Below are positions 4,052 to 60,715 of a DNA stretch of 64,000 nt, piece by piece (within the stretch, counting starts at the first letter, position 1; each line of letters opens with the position of its first letter). This DNA comes from an uncultured Bdellovibrionales bacterium (GTDB lineage Bacteria > Patescibacteriota > Minisyncoccia > Moranbacterales > GWC2-37-73). A program made the translations under genes and the position numbers. The notes under the pieces were generated by a model. That model made no database searches. It was given only the letters and a program-made list of their open reading frames with translations, and was not told the DNA's origin. The stretch lies in the NCBI GenBank assembly GCA_964609855.1, contig CAZSTB010000001.1, forward strand, positions 119,170 to 183,169, given 5' to 3'.

Positions 4052-4734
4052 AAAAGAAATATTTATTTTTTCTTTTTGGTATTTTGTTTTTGAGCTTTTT
4101 CATTATTTTTTACAGGAATTATTCTCCAGTAGCGCAGCAAATTCAAGAAAGCAAGCAAAGTCCAGCCGCGAAAAAAATAGAAAGTCAAGTGAATGAGAAT
4201 AATCTAGCGGTGCCTGGTCAGAATAAATCAGATGAATTTAAAATGCCTCTTGAAAAGACTTCGGAAAGAGTCACAAAGAAAGAATTCGGAAAATATGTAA
4301 CGCCCGAAAATTCTCCAGTCAGTCCGGAAAGATTCTCCGGATACCACACTGGTGTGGATTTCGAAATATTTCCCGGGGAAGAAAACGTTGAAATAAAAGT
4401 CTCTGCCATGTGCTCGGGAAAGTTGTTGGAGAAAAGATATGCTAGCGGATATGGCGGCGCGCTAGTTCAGTCTTGCCGGCTTAATAATGAGGACGTGACT
4501 GTAATTTATGGACATCTGGAGCTTGCCAGCATAGATAAAAAAATTGGTGACGATTTAAATGCTGGAGATCTTTTAGGAATTCTGGGCGATGGAAATAGCC
4601 AAGAAACAGATGGCGAACGTAAGCATTTACATCTTGGTATTCACAAAGGAAAAGATATAAATCTTTTGGGTTATGCAAAAAATCAAACTCAACTTTCGCA
4701 GTGGCACGATCCTTGTAAATGGGTTTGTGATTGA
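4048..4734 (+). CDS. M23 family metallopeptidase (LytM domain), membrane-anchored
   Basis: N-terminal TM segment. HTGVDF and GHLE...HLHLGIH zinc-binding motifs of peptidase M23. Confidence 0.75.
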   Translation: MKKKYLFFLFGILFLSFFIIFYRNYSPVAQQIQESKQSPAAKKIESQVNENNLAVPGQNKSDEFKMPLEKTSERVTKKEFGKYVTPENSPVSPERFSGYHTGVDFEIFPGEENVEIKVSAMCSGKLLEKRYASGYGGALVQSCRLNNEDVTVIYGHLELASIDKKIGDDLNAGDLLGILGDGNSQETDGERKHLHLGIHKGKDINLLGYAKNQTQLSQWHDPCKWVCD

Positions 4735-4805
4735 GTTTAAAGATAAAATTTCATAAACATTACTGCAAAATTATTAATCCATACTCATTAACATACGATA
4801 AAACC

Positions 4806-4834
4806 TTGACTTTTTCATTTTTATCCTGTATACT
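4806..4834 (+). promoter_or_regulatory. Strong sigma70-like promoter (TTGACT-17-TATACT) with no downstream ORF
   Basis: ttgactttttcatttttatcctgtatact. The next ~500 bp are palindrome-rich and have no convincing ORF. Confidence 0.45.
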
Positions 4835-4933
4835 ACTATGGTGCTAAAAAATAAAATAGTGATATTTTGCTGGGCCCGCAACAAATTTGAGTGGGCAAAT
4901 AAATATTTTATCTAATCAATAAGATATTTTTTT

Positions 4934-4996
4934 ATTGTCGAACGAAGTCGAGCGAAACGAAAATAAACTTTTCGTTTCCGAGCGAGTGATGACATC
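4934..4996. repeat. MITE-like inverted-repeat element, copy 1 (short form)
   Basis: attgtcgaacgaagtcgagcg...cgagcgagtgatgacatc. The termini match, in inverted orientation, the termini of the elements at 39627-39749 and 50724-50903. Confidence 0.5.
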
Positions 4997-5518
4997 AAAT
5001 AGGTTTAACCTGCCTGCCGGCAGGCAGGTACCTCGATGCTTGCGAGGGTTCGGGGCTTGCCCCAGGGTTAATACCTTTTATTTTCAAGCGACGCAAGTTG
5101 AAGTGATGAAATATTTCATCACTACTGATCAGTGCGGGGACGCATGAGCTTGAACAGCCTACTTTCCAGGGTGAGGAGAGTGAAAAATATTCTACTGTTA
5201 TTTTTAGGCCGAAACAAAACACCAATCGTTTACAAATAGCATTTATAAGTAAGCGAGCCATCATTAATATAGGACTTACGCGTTTATCATCAAATCTTTC
5301 GTTTTTTACGTCGGGTGGGATGGATTAGGATAATGAATGCGTGCGCCTTGAAAAAAATATGTCAAAATTTGAATTGCTTAAAAAGCTGGAATATTTAATC
5401 GCGTTTCAATCTAATTGTTTGCAGAGTGGGAACTGGGATGAATTCGACAAGATTGAAGATAGTATTAAGAAATTAGAAGTAAATATCCTTAAATCTATCG
5501 AATAAGAAATTTTGCTTT

Positions 5519-5935
5519 TCACTTGCGCCCTTTTCTTGAAGTGCAATATGCACATTTGCAGCCCATAGGTTTTATATAGGTATAAAAATACTCTTTGCCG
5601 TAATCATAACCAAGTTGTTCTCCAACCTCGATATTTCTCAGTGCAAAAATCAGTATCTGCTTTCTGCGAATTTGAACTTCACAGTTGGGCTGACATGAGT
5701 GATTGATGTAACGGCTCAAATTTTCGCGACCCTTGCCGTCAATGGCCCATTTGGAATCTATTTGGAATAAGTATTTTCCGCCTCTTAGCTCAGCTTCCTC
5801 GGTTGAAATCAGGTCGCCGGTATATTCAGAAACAAGTTTTCCTTGAGTGATTTTTTCTTTAGCAAAAAGTCCTAAACCGCTTGCAGAACGGCTTACTTGC
5901 ATTAAATTCGAATTTGTTAGTATGTATTTTGCCAT
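5519..5935 (-). CDS. SET-domain protein (putative lysine methyltransferase) with post-SET Cys cluster
   Basis: RYINHSCQPNC (NHSC SET signature), ELGEQLGYDY, and a C-terminal CKCAYC cysteine cluster. Confidence 0.8.
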   Translation of the reverse strand: MAKYILTNSNLMQVSRSASGLGLFAKEKITQGKLVSEYTGDLISTEEAELRGGKYLFQIDSKWAIDGKGRENLSRYINHSCQPNCEVQIRRKQILIFALRNIEVGEQLGYDYGKEYFYTYIKPMGCKCAYCTSRKGRK

Positions 5936-6071
5936 GATAGTTTATACAAACAACGCTCGAAAATTATTTTAGATTTAGATGGTCAAGATTGAATTTAGGT
6001 GCTAAAATATTTTCAAGTAATATTTAACGGCAGTTGCTTGAAAGTTGTTTTCCTAGCATGCATAAAAAATA

Positions 6072-6416
6072 ATGAAAATTGAAACTGAAGATGGTAAAAA
6101 AATTGAAGCTATTTTTAGGGTGCTAGAAATGCCTCAGAAAGAAATAGTTGAGCATATGGACAGGATCGGGGAAGCGTTGCTTATGGATGTTGTCGCTGAG
6201 GCCTTTGCGCAGAAAGATTTTTCTCCCGAGGAGGAACTCGCTAGCAAGGATGATTTAGCTAAATTCTTGTTGGAAAATTGCAGTGAGCAGGAAATAAAAG
6301 AATTTACCGCAATTGTTTTGCATGATGTGGTGGTTGAGTATTTTTCAAAAATGCTAAAAGAACTTCCGGATGAGAAAAGGGAAGAAATTGAAAGCATCTT
6401 AAACTCCATTGAATAA
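6072..6416 (+). CDS. Hypothetical acidic protein; 8 bp overlap suggests co-translation with the downstream sigma factor
   Basis: 114 aa, Glu/Asp-rich. No motif recognised. Confidence 0.45.
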   Translation: MKIETEDGKKIEAIFRVLEMPQKEIVEHMDRIGEALLMDVVAEAFAQKDFSPEEELASKDDLAKFLLENCSEQEIKEFTAIVLHDVVVEYFSKMLKELPDEKREEIESILNSIE

Positions 6417-6996
6417 GTTATCGAAAACTGATTCGGAACTGGTTGCTGATTATTTGGCGGGGGAAGAAGCTGTACTGGAGGAACTCGTTGAAAAATATCT
6501 CAAGCCACTTTATAATTTCGTCTACCAGCTTACGCATGATTCTGGTGCGGCTGAAGATATCGTGCAGGATGTATTTGTGAAAATGTGGAAAAATCTGGAT
6601 TCTTTCGATAGAGAAAAAAAATTCTCAACTTGGATTTTTGCGATAGCTAAGAATGCGGCATTGGATTGGTTGAAAAAGAAAAGAAGTTTTAGTTTTTCTT
6701 TTTTCTCGAGTGAGGCTGAAGCCAATGGGCTTGATGAAATTGAAGATGATTCCGCTTGGCATGGAAATGATCTATTAGAATTAATCGATAATAGAAAGGA
6801 TATAGAGAAATTACTGTCAACCATTTCTTCAGAAGCAAAGACAATTTTACTGCTTCATCAGGTGCATGGTTTTTCTTTGATGGAGGTTTCGCAAATCATG
6901 GGGCAATCTTCAAACACAACTAAAAGTAAGTATCGTAGAGCTATTTTGAATTTACGGAAGTTGGTAGGTGGCACTGCGCTGAAGACCTCGAAATAA
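6409..6996 (+). CDS. ECF-type RNA polymerase sigma-70 family factor
   Basis: Region 2 (DIVQDVFVKMWKNLDSFD...FSTWIFAIAKNAALDW) and region 4 HTH (LHQVHGFSLMEVSQIMGQSSNTTKSKYRRA). Confidence 0.85.
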   Translation: MNKLSKTDSELVADYLAGEEAVLEELVEKYLKPLYNFVYQLTHDSGAAEDIVQDVFVKMWKNLDSFDREKKFSTWIFAIAKNAALDWLKKKRSFSFSFFSSEAEANGLDEIEDDSAWHGNDLLELIDNRKDIEKLLSTISSEAKTILLLHQVHGFSLMEVSQIMGQSSNTTKSKYRRAILNLRKLVGGTALKTSK

Positions 6997-7103
6997 AAAG
7001 ATCAATCCCCTCGGATTGGTTTTTTATCGTCCAATGAAGTAAATGAAGTGGGTCCTAATCTTTTATTGCACCCAGACTGACAATTAATTCGTATTATAAA
7101 TAT

Positions 7104-7505
7104 ATGGAAAACAACTTGAATAAAATTTTTGCCCAAACGGAGCCTCCAAAACATTTGAAAGCTGCAGTTTTAAGGCAAATTAAGCTTGCTCAGACAAGAA
7201 AACTTCAGCGTGAGAAGCGTCTTTTTATGTTTGGTTTTTGCGCCAATGCGGCAATTTTTGCTTCTGCTATATTTATTTTTGGAAAACAATTGTTAGTTTC
7301 TGATTTTTGGAGCATTGCCTTGTTGGCTTTTACTGATTTCACTACAGTGGCTAGCTACTGGCAATCACTCGGAATGTCGCTGCTGGAAACATTTCCGGCA
7401 ATTTCGGTTGTAGGAATCTTGTTTCCGATATTCTTATTCCTATTCTTAGTGAGACAGTATGTTAATCAACATTTGAATAAGTTTACTCTAAAATTTTTAT
7501 ATTAA
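7104..7505 (+). CDS. Putative membrane anti-sigma factor (call rests on position and topology only)
   Basis: Directly downstream of the ECF sigma. Cytoplasmic N-terminal segment followed by hydrophobic helices. Confidence 0.35.
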   Translation: MENNLNKIFAQTEPPKHLKAAVLRQIKLAQTRKLQREKRLFMFGFCANAAIFASAIFIFGKQLLVSDFWSIALLAFTDFTTVASYWQSLGMSLLETFPAISVVGILFPIFLFLFLVRQYVNQHLNKFTLKFLY

Positions 7506-7506
7506 T

Positions 7507-7998
7507 ATGATGAAAAATATTGATCAAGTAGTTACTTCAAAATACTTTAAATTTATTTTATTTGGTCTGGGAGCAATAATTCTCTTGATAGCAGTCTTTT
7601 CCGCTGGGGTTAGGGTTGGTTTCAGGAAAGCCAGTTTTTCGAATGAATTTGGAGAAAATTATGAAAGAAATTTCATGGGTGGACCAAGAGGTCAAATGAT
7701 GGAAGGCCGGGGAAAATCCAATGGGCCAATGGGCGCATTCAGGGAATTTGAAGGGAGAGGCTTTCGTAATGCGCACGGAGTTGCTGGAAACATAATTTCA
7801 GTAAATGATGAAGTAATCATCATAAAAGATGGTGATAATAAAGAAAACACCGTAAGTATTACTGAAAAGACCCTAATTAAATCGCGCGGTGGCGATTTGG
7901 AAAAAAGCAGTCTCGAAAACGGTCAGCGTCTGGTTGTCGTGGGGAAGCCTGACAAAATGGGAACTATTGTGGCTGAGCTAATTAGGGTGTTTGAATAG
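7507..7998 (+). CDS. Membrane-anchored protein with a Gly/Arg-rich linker and a C-terminal beta-rich domain (paralog family A)
   Basis: N-terminal TM. C-terminal region aligns with 11291..11752 and 43641..44048 on a shared GxIISxx...IKxxDG...GQxxxVxGxxxxDGxIxAxxI pattern. Confidence 0.5.
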   Translation: MMKNIDQVVTSKYFKFILFGLGAIILLIAVFSAGVRVGFRKASFSNEFGENYERNFMGGPRGQMMEGRGKSNGPMGAFREFEGRGFRNAHGVAGNIISVNDEVIIIKDGDNKENTVSITEKTLIKSRGGDLEKSSLENGQRLVVVGKPDKMGTIVAELIRVFE

Positions 7999-9199
7999 AT
8001 TTAATAAAAAATTTAAAATAAAAGTTGCTATGAAAAAATGGAAGATTTTTGCCATCGTTGCATTATTAGGAGTCGTGATATATTACTGGTATAGTCAGAA
8101 AAATGATATTGCTAAGGCCATTCAATATAAAACAACTGTTGCGGAAAAGAGCAGTTTGACGACTTCAGTTTCTGCGAGCGGAAATGTCGTGGTTGACCAA
8201 TTGGCAACTGTTGATCCTACAATCACGGGAACAGTTGCAGATTTGGCGGTAAATGTTGGAGAAAATGTAAAAAGGGGGGCTCGGCTCTTTACTATTATCA
8301 ATGACGATCTTTCAGTAAGTAACAACAAATCAGTAGCATCTTTGCAGCAAGCTGAAAATTCAGTAGCCTCGGCGAAGCTTCAGGTGAAGCAGGCAAAAGA
8401 AGATTATGACCAGGCTAAAGATAATGACCAAAGCAGTTCCGACCAACGAAGGATACTTAAGGATAAAATTGCAATTGCTGAAAGAGGCGTACTTGCGGCA
8501 GAAAAAAATTATGCAGCCTCTTTGGCGGACTACAAAAACCAACTTTCAGATGGCGCCAAAAGAACTGTCACCGCACCAATTGATGGAACAGTCAGTGCGA
8601 TCAATATAAAAAACGGAGATGATCTGAGCCGTCTTGCATCGAGTAGTAGCTCCAATAGTGCTCCGATTATTATCGGAGATTTGAAAACTTTGAAAGCGCA
8701 GGTGGCGGTCAATGAAGTCGATATTTCTGATGTGGAAATAGGACAGAAAGTTATGTTAACTTTCAGCGCCATCGACGGACTTTCTCTGACAGGAAAAGTT
8801 GAAAAGATGGACGCGCTCGGAACGCTTTCGCAAGGAGTTGTGACATATAATGTGACAGTGGGTTTTGATGAGATTGACTCCCGAATAAAACCGCAGATGA
8901 GTGTTTCTGCTAAAATCATTACCGAGGTGAAGCAAAATATTGTGGTCGTGCCTAACGGCGCACTTAAAACCCAAGGTAATGCTATATATATTGAAGTTTT
9001 AAATATCCAAAAGCAGCCAGAGAAGCGAACCATAGAAATCGGCGCTGCCAATAATACGGAAACCGAAATAGTCAGTGGCATCGATATTGGAGATGCTGTG
9101 ATTACGCAGACCATTGATCCCAATATTAAGACAACTACTGCTTCCAGCGGCTCTAGTAGTGGTGTTAGAATTCCAGGGCTGGGCGGAGGAGTAAGATAA
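7991..9199 (+). CDS. Periplasmic adaptor subunit (HlyD/MacA-type membrane-fusion protein)
   Basis: N-terminal TM, coiled-coil hairpin region, beta-barrel/lipoyl segments. Placed upstream of the MacB-like ATPase and permease. Confidence 0.8.
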   Translation: MNRFNKKFKIKVAMKKWKIFAIVALLGVVIYYWYSQKNDIAKAIQYKTTVAEKSSLTTSVSASGNVVVDQLATVDPTITGTVADLAVNVGENVKRGARLFTIINDDLSVSNNKSVASLQQAENSVASAKLQVKQAKEDYDQAKDNDQSSSDQRRILKDKIAIAERGVLAAEKNYAASLADYKNQLSDGAKRTVTAPIDGTVSAINIKNGDDLSRLASSSSSNSAPIIIGDLKTLKAQVAVNEVDISDVEIGQKVMLTFSAIDGLSLTGKVEKMDALGTLSQGVVTYNVTVGFDEIDSRIKPQMSVSAKIITEVKQNIVVVPNGALKTQGNAIYIEVLNIQKQPEKRTIEIGAANNTETEIVSGIDIGDAVITQTIDPNIKTTTASSGSSSGVRIPGLGGGVR

Positions 9200-9269
9200 T
9201 TTCAATAATATAGCATATACAAAAGACAAACTAAACTTATTGTTTTTTTTGAATATTGACTATTGAATA

Positions 9270-9965
9270 TTGACAATGATTGAATGCAAAAATATAACTA
9301 AAATTTATCGAAGCGGAGACGTGGAAACGGTGGCGCTCAAGGACATATCTTTTTCAATTGAGAAAGGTGAGTTTGTCGCAATTATCGGACCTTCAGGATC
9401 TGGAAAATCGACGCTGATGCATATTTTGGGCGCTCTCGATACGCCGACTTCAGGAACTTATTTGCTGGATGGATTGAAAGTGTCATCGCTCGATGACGAT
9501 AAGTTGTCACAACTCAGAAGAGATAAAATCGGTTTCGTCTTTCAGTCTTTCAATCTCTTGCCACGGACTACGGTGATGAGAAATGTCATGTTGCCACTTC
9601 TGTATAGTGACACGACATTAAAGGAGAGAGAAGCGCGCGCCAGGTTATGTTTGAAATATGCGGGCATGGAAGAGAATAAATTTTTTAATCTTTCCAATCA
9701 GCTTTCTGGTGGGCAGATGCAACGTGTGGCTATTGCTCGTTCGCTAATAAATAATCCTGCGATCATTTTGGCTGATGAACCGACTGGAAATTTGGACACT
9801 AAAACTAGCAACATCGTCATGGAAGCCTTTCAAGAATTGAATAAAAAAGGTCACACCATTATATTAATCACACATGAACCGGAAATCGCCGCATTTGCGG
9901 ACCGGATTATCACAATTCGTGATGGATTGATTGAGAGCGATAAAATAATGAAAGATAAATCGTAA
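9270..9965 (+). CDS. ABC transporter ATP-binding protein (MacB/LolD type)
   Basis: GPSGSGKST Walker [16 protein letters not shown] signature, [11 protein letters not shown] Walker B. Confidence 0.9.
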
Positions 9966-9976
9966 AAGTTAGAAAT

Positions 9977-11194
9977 ATGATCTTAGATGATTTATTGAAA
10001 GAAACCTTTTGGTCTCTTTCTGCAAACAAAGTTCGCAGCGGACTTACTATTTTGGGAATCGTTATCGGAATTGCTTCCGTGATTACAATGGTTTCTATCG
10101 GACAAGGCGCTCAAAATTCCATTCAAAGTAGTATTCAGGCAATCGGGTCAAACCTTATTATTATCAGACCAGGGGCTCAGCGAAGCGGCGGAGTGAGTGG
10201 CGGGAGCGGAAGCGGGGAAACACTTACAGTTGAAGATGCAAATGCTATCAAAAATGTCGTTGAAAATGTTGTCGCAGTTGCTCCTGAGGATTCAAAACGT
10301 GCTCAAGTTACTGCCAAGGGTACAAACACAAACACTCAAATAGTTGGGACAGTAGCTGATTACGCGATTGTGCGGAGTATCGCAATGGAGTCAGGAATTT
10401 TTATCACTGAACAGGCGGTTAAGGGATTTTCCAAAGTTGCAGTACTGGGCTCAACGACGCGAAATGATTTGTTTGGAATAAATTCTGATCCAGTCGGCAA
10501 GATTATTCGCATTAAAAATGTAGATTTCGAGGTTATTGGAGTTACTGTTGCTAAGGGTGGCAGTGGTTTTACAAATCCTGATGACAGCATCTACATCCCA
10601 ATTTCCAGCTCGCAGCATTTTATTACTGGAAATACTTTCGTGTCTTCAATCAGCGCCGCGGCATCAGATCAAGGTTCAATGACTGCGGTGCAGGAAAGTA
10701 TTTCACAGCTGCTCTTGTCGCGCCATGGTTTTTCGGATCCTAAGCAAGCAGATTTCAATCTCATGAATCAAGCCGACATAATCGCCACAGCCTCAAGCAT
10801 CACGGGGACGTTTACGATTTTACTCTCCTCAATTGCTGGAATTTCACTACTGGTCGGAGGCATCGGAATCATGAATATGATGTTGACTACAGTGACGGAG
10901 CGAACCAGGGAGATTGGCTTGAGAAAAGCTGTGGGTATCAGGAAGATTTATATTAATTTGCAATTTTTATCCGAAGCAGTGGCACTGACGTTTCTTGGAG
11001 GACTGATAGGTGTTCTACTTGGATGGGGCGCTTCGCTGGCCGTGGCTAAATTTGCAAATATGGCGACTCAAATTTCATCCTCTTCGATCCTTTTGGCTTT
11101 CGGTGTGTCTGCTGGAGTCGGAATCATCTTCGGATTCTATCCTGCGCGCCGTGCTGCAAATTTAAGTCCCATGGAGGCGTTAAGATATGAGTAA
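9977..11194 (+). CDS. ABC transporter permease (FtsX/MacB family)
   Basis: MacB-like topology: N-terminal TM, large periplasmic domain, C-terminal 3-TM FtsX domain (GIGIMNMMLTTVTERTREIGLRKAVG). Confidence 0.85.
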   Translation: MILDDLLKETFWSLSANKVRSGLTILGIVIGIASVITMVSIGQGAQNSIQSSIQAIGSNLIIIRPGAQRSGGVSGGSGSGETLTVEDANAIKNVVENVVAVAPEDSKRAQVTAKGTNTNTQIVGTVADYAIVRSIAMESGIFITEQAVKGFSKVAVLGSTTRNDLFGINSDPVGKIIRIKNVDFEVIGVTVAKGGSGFTNPDDSIYIPISSSQHFITGNTFVSSISAAASDQGSMTAVQESISQLLLSRHGFSDPKQADFNLMNQADIIATASSITGTFTILLSSIAGISLLVGGIGIMNMMLTTVTERTREIGLRKAVGIRKIYINLQFLSEAVALTFLGGLIGVLLGWGASLAVAKFANMATQISSSSILLAFGVSAGVGIIFGFYPARRAANLSPMEALRYE

Positions 11195-12904: not shown

Positions 12905-14113
12905 ATGAAAAAACAAGCACTTCTTCAAAATGCACCCTTAGCTGATCGCATGCGACCTCAAACTCTTGAGGAATTTTTCGGTCAGGAGGAATTAGTCGGG
13001 GAGGGATCATTTTTAAGGAGTGCGATTGAAAATGACCGCGTGCCGTCGATGATTCTTTGGGGTCCTCCCGGTAGCGGTAAAACAACTTTAGCATCAATCA
13101 TCGCAGGAGAAACAAAATCAGAATTTATCCAAATCAGCGCAGTAACCAGTGGAATAAAAGAACTTCGAAAGGTTATTGCTCAGGCTCAGGAAAATGAATG
13201 GCAGAAAAAGAAGACAATTTTATTTGTAGACGAAATCCACCGCTGGAATAAATCCCAGCAGGATGCACTTTTACCTCATGTGGAACACGGTTTGGTGACT
13301 TTGATCGGAGCAACTACCGAGAATCCGAGCTTCGAAGTCAACAGCGCGCTTGTTTCGCGGACGCGCGTACTGGTTTTGAAAAAACTTGAAAGTGAAAATA
13401 TTGCAAAAATAATTACGCATGCTCTAAATGACAAGGAAAAAGGTTTGGGAAAAATGCAGATTGAAATTGAGGAGGAGATGATCAAGGAAATTTCTCTGCT
13501 TGCCAATGGAGATGCGCGCATGGCGCTCAATACTGTGGAGCTTGCAGCAAATCAGAGCAAAAAAATCACTCGCGAAGTCATCAAGCAAGTTATTCAGAAA
13601 TCCCATCTCTATTACGACAAAGGCGGGGAAGAACATTACAATATTATTTCAGCGCTGCATAAATCAATGCGCGGCGGGGACGAAAACGCAGCACTTTATT
13701 GGTTGGCCCGCATGCTTGAAGGTGGAGAGCAACCGACCTATATTGCAAGAAGACTACTGCGATTTGCATCAGAAGATGTCGGGATGGCTGACAGCTTCGC
13801 TTTGGTTTTAGCTAATAACGTGTTTGATGCTTGTCATAAAATCGGATATCCGGAATGCAGCGTCCATCTCGCTCAGCTCGTGGTCTATCTTTCGAAAGCT
13901 CCAAAAAGTGTGAAAACATATTTTGCTTACAATAAGGCCAAGAAAGATGTGGAGGAATATGGCAATCTCCCTGTTCCGATGCACATCAGAAATGCCCCAA
14001 CTAAATTAATGGAAAAATTAGGCTATGGTAAGGGTTATAAATATACGCCCGTTGAAGACAGTGGGGGGCAGGAATATTTGCCAAAGGAAATAAAGAATAG
14101 AAAATATTTGTGA
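12905..14113 (+). CDS. rarA: Replication-associated recombination protein A (RarA/MgsA AAA+ ATPase)
   Basis: ILWGPPGSGKTTLA Walker A, LFVDEIHRWNKSQQDALLPHVE Walker B/sensor region, C-terminal MgsA domain. Confidence 0.9.
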   Translation: MKKQALLQNAPLADRMRPQTLEEFFGQEELVGEGSFLRSAIENDRVPSMILWGPPGSGKTTLASIIAGETKSEFIQISAVTSGIKELRKVIAQAQENEWQKKKTILFVDEIHRWNKSQQDALLPHVEHGLVTLIGATTENPSFEVNSALVSRTRVLVLKKLESENIAKIITHALNDKEKGLGKMQIEIEEEMIKEISLLANGDARMALNTVELAANQSKKITREVIKQVIQKSHLYYDKGGEEHYNIISALHKSMRGGDENAALYWLARMLEGGEQPTYIARRLLRFASEDVGMADSFALVLANNVFDACHKIGYPECSVHLAQLVVYLSKAPKSVKTYFAYNKAKKDVEEYGNLPVPMHIRNAPTKLMEKLGYGKGYKYTPVEDSGGQEYLPKEIKNRKYL

Positions 14114-20596: not shown

Positions 20597-21343
20597 ATGC
20601 GTAAAAAAGTAACAGCAAAAAAATCAAAAGCTTCAGTTAAGCCTAAAAAGGCTAAGACTATGCAAATGGTGAAAACTCAAAAAATCGCCAAGAAAGTTAA
20701 ACCTGCCAAGAAAGCTGTAGCAATAAGGAAAATTCGTAAGACTACGAAAGCGCTTTTCGCTTTAGGTAATTTAAATTCCTCGCATGCTAGAATTTTAATT
20801 TTATTGATCCTGATTATTTTTACTTTAACTTTCATGGTTGCATGGAGAATGCAAACTGATGATAATGATAATCTAAAAAATGCACAGATAAAGGTTGCCC
20901 AGGTTAAGCAGCAAACTCCCCTTGAAAAAGAAATTGCTGATATGGTGCAAGGTTATCCGATTGAAAAAATGATGCCATATATTTTGAAACAGGAGCCGAA
21001 GACCGCGATGTTTCTGGTGGCTATCGCTAAGAAAGAAAGTGCATGGGGAAAAAGGAAGCCGGTTTTAAATGGCGAAGATTGTTTCAATTATTGGGGCTTT
21101 CGTCTGAAAGCTGAACGAATGGGCTCAGGAGGTCATACTTGTTTTGACTCTCCAAAGCAAGCTGTTGAGAAAGTAGCTGAACGTATTGATCAGTTAGTCA
21201 AAGAAGAGGAAATCGATACGCCGTCTGACATGATCGTTTGGAAATGCGGTTATGGTTGTCAGGATAAACCCAAGACTATCAGTGAAAAAAAATGGATTAA
21301 TGATGTGGATTTCTATTACAGTGCGATGAATGAATATCTGTAA
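20597..21343 (+). CDS. Membrane-anchored GH73-like (ESxWG) putative peptidoglycan hydrolase with Lys-rich N-terminal tail (paralog family B)
   Basis: KAKK-rich N-terminus, one TM, then AIAKKESAWGKR...NYWGF...GSGGHTCF...WKCG. Paralogs at 48634 and 49871. Confidence 0.5.
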   Translation: MRKKVTAKKSKASVKPKKAKTMQMVKTQKIAKKVKPAKKAVAIRKIRKTTKALFALGNLNSSHARILILLILIIFTLTFMVAWRMQTDDNDNLKNAQIKVAQVKQQTPLEKEIADMVQGYPIEKMMPYILKQEPKTAMFLVAIAKKESAWGKRKPVLNGEDCFNYWGFRLKAERMGSGGHTCFDSPKQAVEKVAERIDQLVKEEEIDTPSDMIVWKCGYGCQDKPKTISEKKWINDVDFYYSAMNEYL

Positions 21344-35747: not shown

Positions 35748-36068
35748 ATGGCAACAAAACTCTATGTAGGTGGTCTTCCTTATTCAACTTCGGAAGATGC
35801 AATGCGAGATCTTTTTGCTCAAGCAGGAAGCGTTACCTCAGCAACGATCATCATGGATAAAATGACTGGTCGCAGCAAAGGTTTCGGATTCGTTGAAATG
35901 TCTTCTGACGAAGAAGCACAAGCAGCAATCGAAATGTTTGACAAAAAAGAGTACGAAGGACGTACTTTGACTGTAAATGAAGCTCGTCCAATGGAAGCTC
36001 GTCCTCCAAGACGTGATTTCAATGGTGGTGGTAACCGCGGTGGTTACGGAAGCCGAAACAACTACTAG
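35748..36068 (+). CDS. Glycine-rich RNA-binding protein with RRM (RNP-1/RNP-2) domain
   Basis: KLYVGGLPY (RNP-2), KGFGFVEM (RNP-1), C-terminal GGGNRGGYG tail. Confidence 0.85.
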   Translation: MATKLYVGGLPYSTSEDAMRDLFAQAGSVTSATIIMDKMTGRSKGFGFVEMSSDEEAQAAIEMFDKKEYEGRTLTVNEARPMEARPPRRDFNGGGNRGGYGSRNNY

Positions 36069-60358: not shown

Positions 60359-60715
60359 ATGAATTATGATTTAGAAAATAGAACAAGAAAATTCAGTAAA
60401 GAAATTATTGGATTCTTAAAGCGTTTGAAGAAAGATGATATCAATAAAAGTATGGTTTCTCAGCTAGTAAGGTCTGCAACTAGTGTGGGAGCTAACTATT
60501 GCGAGGCAAATGGTGCAAGCTCCAAGAAAGACTTCAAAAACAAAATATTTATCTGCAGAAAAGAAATTCAGGAAACTAAATACTGGCTTGAACTCATAGC
60601 TGAATCGAATGATGAAGAAAAGGAAAATCTGAAAATTCTTTGGAAAGAAGCTCATGAGCTGACATTAATTTTTAATAAGATATCCTCAACCCTAAATAGT
60701 GAATTGAAAAATTGA
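60359..60715 (+). CDS. Four-helix-bundle protein (TIGR02436 / 23S rRNA intervening-sequence protein family; bAvd-like)
   Basis: QLVRSATSVGANYCEANGASSKKDFKNKIFICRKEIQETKYWLELI matches the family core (QLxRSxxSIgaNIAEG...F..k..ia.kE..ET.yWL.l). Confidence 0.7.
   Translation: MNYDLENRTRKFSKEIIGFLKRLKKDDINKSMVSQLVRSATSVGANYCEANGASSKKDFKNKIFICRKEIQETKYWLELIAESNDEEKENLKILWKEAHELTLIFNKISSTLNSELKN

Follow-up and report, generated by a model that had tools for sequence, protein, structure and literature searches.

A minimal SET-domain protein with a CxCx2C post-SET cluster in a probable Candidatus Moranbacteria genome

The SET gene and its conserved residues

This study analyzed a 64-kb stretch of a genome that most likely belongs to a Candidatus Moranbacteria bacterium (hereafter, the window) with respect to a gene at positions 5519-5935 that encodes a 138-residue SET-domain protein. 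A first-pass annotation of the same DNA had described the product as a minimal SET lysine methyltransferase of approximately 138 residues carrying the motifs NHSCxPNC and GYDYG and a C-terminal CxCxxC cluster. The SET gene comprises the following features.

5519-5935, minus strand: coding sequence of the 138-residue SET-domain protein (ATG start, stop codon at 5519-5521), taken from the open reading frame (ORF) list and the Pfam SET match of 86.9 bits
5597-5878, minus strand: SET domain proper, residues 20-113
5870-5878, minus strand: GxG (G20-L21-G22), SET motif I, predicted part of the S-adenosylmethionine (SAM) pocket; invariant in a 32-sequence alignment
5681-5704, minus strand: NHSCQPNC, residues 78-85, SET motif III; N78, H79, C81, P83, and N84 invariant, C85 at least 90% conserved
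5597-5611, minus strand: GYDYG, residues 109-113, SET motif IV; Y110, Y112, and G113 invariant
5543-5560, minus strand: post-SET cluster CKCAYC (C126, C128, and C131) with CxCx2C spacing; invariant in the 32-sequence alignment
5522-5542, minus strand: basic C-terminal tail TSRKGRK, residues 132-138, directly after the last cysteine

The Pfam SET profile (PF00856; gathering score, 22.4 bits) matched the protein with 86.9 bits (E = 1.4e-24) over profile positions 1-105 of 105, a match that, judged by its score, is far beyond chance. The protein is a member of the SET family and has the SET beta-fold, the fold that carries the pseudoknot. When the protein was compared with the PDB sequences by using phmmer, the SET domains of EHMT1/EHMT2 and MLL1 were the best matches (approximately 5e-18), and the alignment extended through the post-SET cysteines. 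Neither a hydrophobic N-terminal segment nor any domain other than SET/post-SET, ankyrin repeats included, was found in the 138 residues. The isoelectric point of the protein is 9.28, and the family median is 9.5.

The gene calls on the Logan assemblies place the start of the SET gene at Met12 (position 5902; 127 residues, protein P0001), the alternative being position 5935 (138 residues). The exact 138-residue sequence was found in an NCBI record (protein P0130), and the closest homologues begin with M-x-x-Y and equal the 138-residue form in length. Because this record and the homologue N-termini agree, the upstream ATG at 5935, as placed by the first-pass annotation, is the better start. A Shine-Dalgarno-like sequence was not visible upstream of either candidate start codon. 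Identical copies of the gene were found in four independent assemblies.

Residue conservation was scored on an alignment of 32 relatives that are 50-64% identical to the SET protein. The results revealed that G20, L21, G22, E37, Y38, G40, Y55, N78, H79, C81, P83, N84, Y110, Y112, G113, C126, C128, and C131 were invariant. A homology search (E <= 0.001) provided a wider sample, namely the best 120 of 2,510 protein clusters (90% identity), and the pattern NH.C.PN was present in 120 of these 120 homologues. The segment after the last cysteine carried a net positive charge in 83% of them (median, +2). The SAM-binding role of the GxG motif is known from established SET structures, and by analogy with such structures N78 and H79 would line the SAM pocket and the active site. 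The first-pass annotation had made its proposal depend on conservation of the catalytic tyrosine and the NHSC residues, and N78, H79, C81, Y110, and Y112 were indeed invariant in the 32 relatives. Its SET-domain reading frame with the three motifs agreed with the translation and with the Pfam match, and its description of a minimal SET plus post-SET protein of the lysine-methyltransferase type held, with the active site intact and retained in relatives.

The amino acid occupying the Phe/Tyr-switch position, which influences the degree of methylation, was also compared. In the HMMER alignment ('sydyG' vs 'TYDYQ'), Y110 stands opposite the tyrosine of the KMT2D motif TYDYQ. In MLL1 the switch position is occupied by Y3942 and in yeast Set1 by Y1052, and a tyrosine at this position favors lower methylation states, with known exceptions (PMC3585878). 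The switch residue was tyrosine in 119 of the 120 homologues; among the 75 genome loci matching the motif pattern, 65 had it as well. The SET protein may correspondingly favor the lower states. Half of the acidobacterial members carry isoleucine or leucine instead of the switch tyrosine.

Post-SET spacing, distribution, and known SET enzymes

The canonical post-SET motif of eukaryotic SET enzymes is CxCx4C. Among the 120 homologues, 118 had the spacing CxCx2C, as did 75 of 80 loci (the best 80 of at least 581 loci identified in GTDB genomes), whereas CxCx4C was found in 0 of the 120 homologues and 0 of the 80 loci. The first post-SET cysteine was fixed 12 residues after DYG in 117 of 118 homologues. 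Compared with the KMT2 enzymes, the first two post-SET cysteines align, and the third sits two residues earlier in the SET protein. Thus, all four cysteines expected of a post-SET zinc site (C126, C128, C131, and C81 of NHSC) are present, but in a spacing other than the canonical one. By analogy with solved SET structures, C81 would be the fourth zinc ligand of the cluster, and C81, C126, C128, and C131 would together bind zinc. At two loci (L050 and L067), the third post-SET cysteine is replaced by histidine (CxCxxH); this exchange fits a metal ligand and therefore supports, short of proof, a zinc site formed with C81. A third locus (L083) has the deviant arrangement CKCGAEKH. The proteobacterial members (e.g., L023 and L037, the latter from Bradyrhizobium sp. 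STM 3557, NZ_CP120697, within 5,802,325-5,810,735) carry a C-terminal extension past the cluster with a median of approximately 80 residues. The uniform CxCx2C variant is a subfamily trait that goes slightly beyond existing annotation.

The subfamily is widely distributed in bacteria. The length of the best 120 homologues was 122-173 residues (median, 138), and the best named homologues came from Parcubacteria-group bins. When one genome per GTDB species was scanned, subfamily loci were confirmed in at least 581 species genomes. By phylum label, the best 80 of these loci comprised 31 Patescibacteria (Paceibacterota, Nomura-, Wolfe-, Kaiser-, Vogel-, and Moranbacteria, and Saccharibacteria), 10 Acidobacteria (Pyrinomonadaceae, Blastocatellia, and Chloracidobacterium), 31 Proteobacteria (chiefly Bradyrhizobium, Microvirga, Xanthobacteraceae, and Methyloceanibacter, with completely sequenced cultured strains among them), and 8 unclassified loci. 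The best non-self match lay within the same phylum for 65 of the 80 loci, which fits mostly vertical descent within phyla, although 138 residues are too short for a rigorous resolution.

Previous studies had counted over 500 bacterial genomes with SET genes by 2014 (PMC3980110) and have reported COG2940 in 41 of 105 sampled bacterial species (approximately 39%) across 26 taxonomic groups (PMC9018016), and Bradyrhizobium japonicum has been named among SET-encoding bacteria (PMC10117894). A literature search for SET proteins in the Candidate Phyla Radiation/Patescibacteria gave no relevant publication. The first-pass annotation had called SET proteins uncommon in bacteria; given these reports and the 2,510 clusters and at least 581 species genomes of this study, that statement was overstated, whereas its expectation that the ORF would be kept in related genomes was confirmed by the same numbers. 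The SET gene is an ordinary member of a large, already known bacterial family. Its Pfam SET match and the presence of the subfamily in Bradyrhizobium, a SET genus listed in the literature, suggest that it belongs to the bacterial COG2940 group.

The stand-alone COG2940 SET proteins of Bradyrhizobium japonicum and Methanosarcina mazei (Go1-SET) are likewise small, single-domain proteins of free-living prokaryotes, and the role of Go1-SET on the endogenous DNA-binding protein MC1-alpha is of the kind proposed here for the SET protein. The literature search identified no characterized member of the CxCx2C subfamily, and Go1-SET, BaSET, and cpnSET were compared by description only. The Chlorella virus vSET (119 residues) is a comparably minimal SET-only methyltransferase.

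The catalytic module most resembles the SET and post-SET module of the KMT2/SET1 (Trithorax/MLL/COMPASS) enzymes. Unlike these enzymes, the SET protein has no N-SET/WIN region, with only 19 residues preceding the SET domain, and its SET-I insert is shorter, the distance from 'rrg' to 'gkYlF' being reduced by approximately 8 residues. KMT2/SET1 enzymes have the post-SET spacing CxCx4C and the SET protein has CxCx2C, and the partners WDR5, RbBP5, and Ash2L are not expected in a bacterium. Because the N-SET/WIN region and the complex partners are absent, the SET-I insert is shorter, and the post-SET spacing differs, the SET protein is not a KMT2/SET1 member.

The LegAS4/RomA effectors are approximately 450-540 residues long, compared with 138 for the SET protein, which has no ankyrin repeats, secretion context, or extra domains. 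The NCBIfam model AnkI/LegAS4 (NF043024) gave 42.7 bits against a cut-off of 550, and the match covered the SET core only (positions 30-140 of 439); by this curated model, the protein is not a LegAS4-type effector. The Burkholderia thailandensis enzyme BurB is a SET-fold protein of 158 residues that S-methylates free methionine within a biosynthetic pathway (PMC12542666). It is 21% identical to the SET protein, and neither a BurB-type relationship nor a BurB-type gene cluster was found for the latter.

Gene neighborhood and other features of the window

Few genes of the window lie on the minus strand; the SET gene is among them, and it diverges from a 114-residue ORF that overlaps the start of a gene encoding a sigma-70 factor of the extracytoplasmic function (ECF) type. 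The surrounding features are listed below.

4775-4945, plus strand: block of approximately 170 nt within a 606-bp gap (4735-5340), nearly identical in the syntenic related locus L004 (6580-6942)
Approximately 4945-5250: approximately 300 nt present in the window and absent from the syntenic gap of L004
5359-5505, plus strand: 48-residue ORF (MSKFELLKKLEYL...), convergent with the SET gene, the two stop codons being 13 nt apart
5936-6071, no strand: 136-bp intergenic region from which the SET gene and the 114-residue ORF/ECF-sigma operon diverge
6072-11194, plus strand: operon-like run that begins with the 114-residue ORF, which overlaps the ECF-type sigma-70 factor gene by 8 nt
7507-7998: 163-residue ORF with a weak, sub-threshold DUF5666 match
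12905-14113: MgsA-like protein that clusters at 90% identity with one from Candidatus Moranbacteria bacterium GW2011_GWC2_37_8
20597-21343, plus strand: protein that is lysine-rich over residues 1-51, continues with a hydrophobic segment that probably spans the membrane, and has a C-terminal domain containing several cysteines
35748-36068, plus strand: RNA-binding protein of the RNA recognition motif (RRM) type, 106 residues, 30 kb from the SET gene
60359-60715, plus strand: homologue of the 23S rRNA intervening-sequence protein

The SET promoter presumably lies within 5936-6071, judged by position alone. A consensus promoter scan of this region identified one promoter-like site, on the plus strand at 5980-6008, and no minus-strand promoter-like site for the SET gene. 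In the operon-like run, the sigma gene is followed by a 133-residue ORF, without a Pfam match, that possibly encodes an anti-sigma factor, and by the 163-residue ORF; the run closes with genes for a MacA-like membrane-fusion protein, an ATP-binding cassette ATPase, and a MacB/FtsX permease. In L004, whose SET protein is 64% identical, the efflux genes, the small ORF, and an M23 peptidase gene are kept, and a LUD-domain gene replaces the sigma operon. The 48-residue ORF is 58% identical to a 52-residue ORF at the same position in L004 and is therefore probably a real small gene; it had no Pfam, PADLOC, or PHROG match.

The neighborhood survey covered the called genes around five homologues and, at 90 loci, all ORFs lying no more than 3 kb from the SET gene, which were clustered. 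The results revealed that the arrangement in the window is common to near relatives only (L004), and the SET genes of more distant homologues, from Moranbacteria and other lineages, are flanked by unrelated genes. The recurrent neighbor families were confined to Bradyrhizobium-type genomes, and the second-largest neighbor cluster was the antisense ORF of SET in high-GC genomes, an artefact of naive ORF calling. The SET gene is a stand-alone unit without operon partners. No secretion-system genes were adjacent to it, and no biosynthetic gene cluster was found around it in the window or at the examined homologue loci. A defense-system or phage origin of the gene was rejected, with no PADLOC hit and a sole PHROG hit that was insignificant (E = 0.004). 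At a Moranbacteria locus (L007), a homologue of the RRM gene lies approximately 1.5 kb from the SET gene.

The block at 4775-4945 contains a strong promoter-like sequence (TTGACT-17-TATACT, 4806-4834; 10 of 12 matches), which is followed by approximately 100 conserved nt ending in an AU-rich hairpin and a T-run. The intergenic DNA flanking the block is not conserved in L004. The predicted fold of the block is not unusually stable (z = -0.71), and it had no Rfam match at E <= 1. We regard the block as a candidate for an unannotated small RNA or leader. The adjacent stretch at approximately 4945-5250 contains perfect GC-rich palindromes in an AT-rich spacer (CCTGCCTGCCGGCAGGCAGG near 5010-5030 and GGGGCTTGCCCC near 5052-5063) and may be a small inserted repeat element, and the 70- and 89-residue ORFs called in it look spurious. 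A terminator-like hairpin at 5873-5895 (minus strand) lies inside the SET coding sequence and was disregarded, being one match compared with 0.8 expected by chance.

The GC content of the window is 35-41%. Together with the cluster of the MgsA-like protein and the Parcubacteria-group bins of the best named SET homologues, this makes a patescibacterium of the Moranbacteria type the most likely source. All 4-kb bins have a positive GC skew (0.10 to 0.20, except for one bin of 0.02), and most long ORFs are on the plus strand, which fits a single replichore arm with strong gene co-orientation. No tRNA, rRNA, or Rfam family was found at threshold in the 64-kb window, and positions 4700-6100 gave no Rfam match at E <= 1.

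Proposed activity, alternative explanations, and meaning

We propose that the SET gene encodes a cytoplasmic, stand-alone, SAM-dependent SET methyltransferase with a compact zinc-binding post-SET region, whose substrate is most likely a protein of the bacterium itself; we assign this reading a probability of roughly 0.6. As judged from its sequence, the protein is almost certainly an active SET methyltransferase. The acceptor is very likely a protein lysine, and the target is probably endogenous to the bacterium. The absence of a hydrophobic N-terminus, the basic protein and tail, and the presence of the subfamily in free-living bacteria point to a cytoplasmic enzyme with an endogenous substrate. 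Precedents exist in Go1-SET of Methanosarcina mazei, which methylates MC1-alpha, and in cpnSET, which acts on its own DNA-binding protein Hc1. On the basis of these precedents and the cytoplasmic and basic traits of the protein, a basic, nucleic-acid-associated target, either nucleoid-associated or ribosomal, is the most reasonable guess, although a tentative one.

The residue roles in the proposed mechanism are taken from solved SET structures. SAM would sit on one side of the domain, bound by the G20-x-G22 loop, N78/H79, and Y38, and the substrate lysine would enter a narrow channel from the opposite side, lined by Y55, Y110, and Y112. The epsilon-amine of the lysine would then attack the methyl group of SAM, with Y112 as the likely counterpart of the catalytic tyrosine of the ELxF/YDY motif. 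One zinc ion bound by C126, C128, C131, and C81 would fold the C-terminus over the active site and complete the channel.

Several observations weigh against the proposed reading or parts of it. In the predicted model, confidence is lowest for the post-SET region (predicted local distance difference test score, 61-75). Yeast Set1 and the MLL1 complex trimethylate despite their switch tyrosine (PMC3585878), and the SET fold alone is no proof of a protein-lysine substrate because BurB methylates free methionine (PMC12542666). No neighbor family occurred in more than 11 of the 90 SET loci, and the recurrent ones were lineage-restricted; because the neighborhoods differ between lineages, the genomic context gives no clue to the target. 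In addition, a basic isoelectric point is weak evidence for a nucleic-acid-associated target.

The protein could instead be a secreted or injected nucleomodulin that methylates host histones or other host proteins, in the manner of Legionella RomA/LegAS4, Chlamydia NUE, Burkholderia BtSET, and Bacillus anthracis BaSET. BaSET is secreted without a recognizable signal, so the absence of a signal does not settle export. We nevertheless consider this explanation unlikely, in view of the low, core-only match to the LegAS4 model, the lack of ankyrin repeats, an extra domain, and a hydrophobic N-terminal segment, the absence of adjacent secretion-system genes, and the fact that free-living soil Bradyrhizobium, Microvirga, and Acidobacteria carry this subfamily too. 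Moreover, the known hosts of Patescibacteria are for the most part bacteria or archaea, organisms expected to have no histone H3/H4 tails. The first-pass annotation had left the target as bacterial or host-cell; the bacterial alternative is plausible, whereas the host alternative is argued against by the free-living Bradyrhizobium and Acidobacteria carriers and by the lack of a hydrophobic N-terminus. A small-molecule or other non-lysine acceptor, modeled on BurB, appears improbable: the identity to BurB is 21%, compared with 34-39% to SET1/MLL1; 20 structures outrank BurB; and the lysine-methyltransferase motif residues (NHSCxPN, YDY, and the post-SET cysteines) are invariant in the family. 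The SET gene also lies in no biosynthetic gene cluster, whereas burB is part of a secondary-metabolite pathway (PMC12542666).

The lysine-rich protein at 20597-21343 had been suggested as a specific target under the description of a KAKK-tailed hydrolase. Its N-terminal 51 residues are very rich in lysine, and their position ahead of the hydrophobic, probably membrane-spanning segment suggests that they are cytoplasmic. This stretch is the N-terminus of the protein and not a tail, and a hydrolase assignment is unsupported, the protein having no Pfam domain. The two genes are 15 kb apart without conserved linkage, lysine-rich segments are ordinary in membrane-anchored proteins, and there was no sign of homologues of the protein in the SET-carrying Acidobacteria and Alphaproteobacteria, for which no direct search was made. 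These points leave the suggestion unsupported, and we regard this target as very improbable. Still harder to credit is that the gene is a decayed remnant, a pseudo-enzyme, or a chance ORF. The lack of a Shine-Dalgarno-like sequence at either start and of a minus-strand promoter-like site would fit such an origin, but the reading frame is full-length and intact, the catalytic motifs are invariant, the four assemblies carry identical copies, and thousands of homologues have a similar length.

The preferred reading, a cytoplasmic SET methyltransferase acting on a protein of its own cell, bears on the question of what SET enzymes methylate in non-pathogenic bacteria. The characterized SET cases in the literature surveyed on free-living or non-pathogenic bacteria were all assayed on histones. 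The SET locus does not make this question newly testable; it is one more uncharacterized example, from a probable Candidatus Moranbacteria genome. The practical gain lies in carriers that can be cultivated: Bradyrhizobium and Microvirga have the same subfamily, and gene knockout combined with methyl-lysine proteomics is feasible in them. Neither the cultivable carriers nor the CxCx2C variant changes current understanding.

A broader, doubtful possibility is that the CxCx2C SET proteins form a distinct, mostly vertically inherited, KMT2-like bacterial lineage with a conserved endogenous substrate associated with nucleic acids (nucleoid-associated or ribosomal). If this were true, the retention of the gene in the generally gene-poor Patescibacteria would point to a widespread, unrecognized lysine-methyl mark of a 'chromatin-like' or translational kind, and the CxCx2C lineage would be a candidate for a bacterial relative of the catalytic module of eukaryotic Trithorax.
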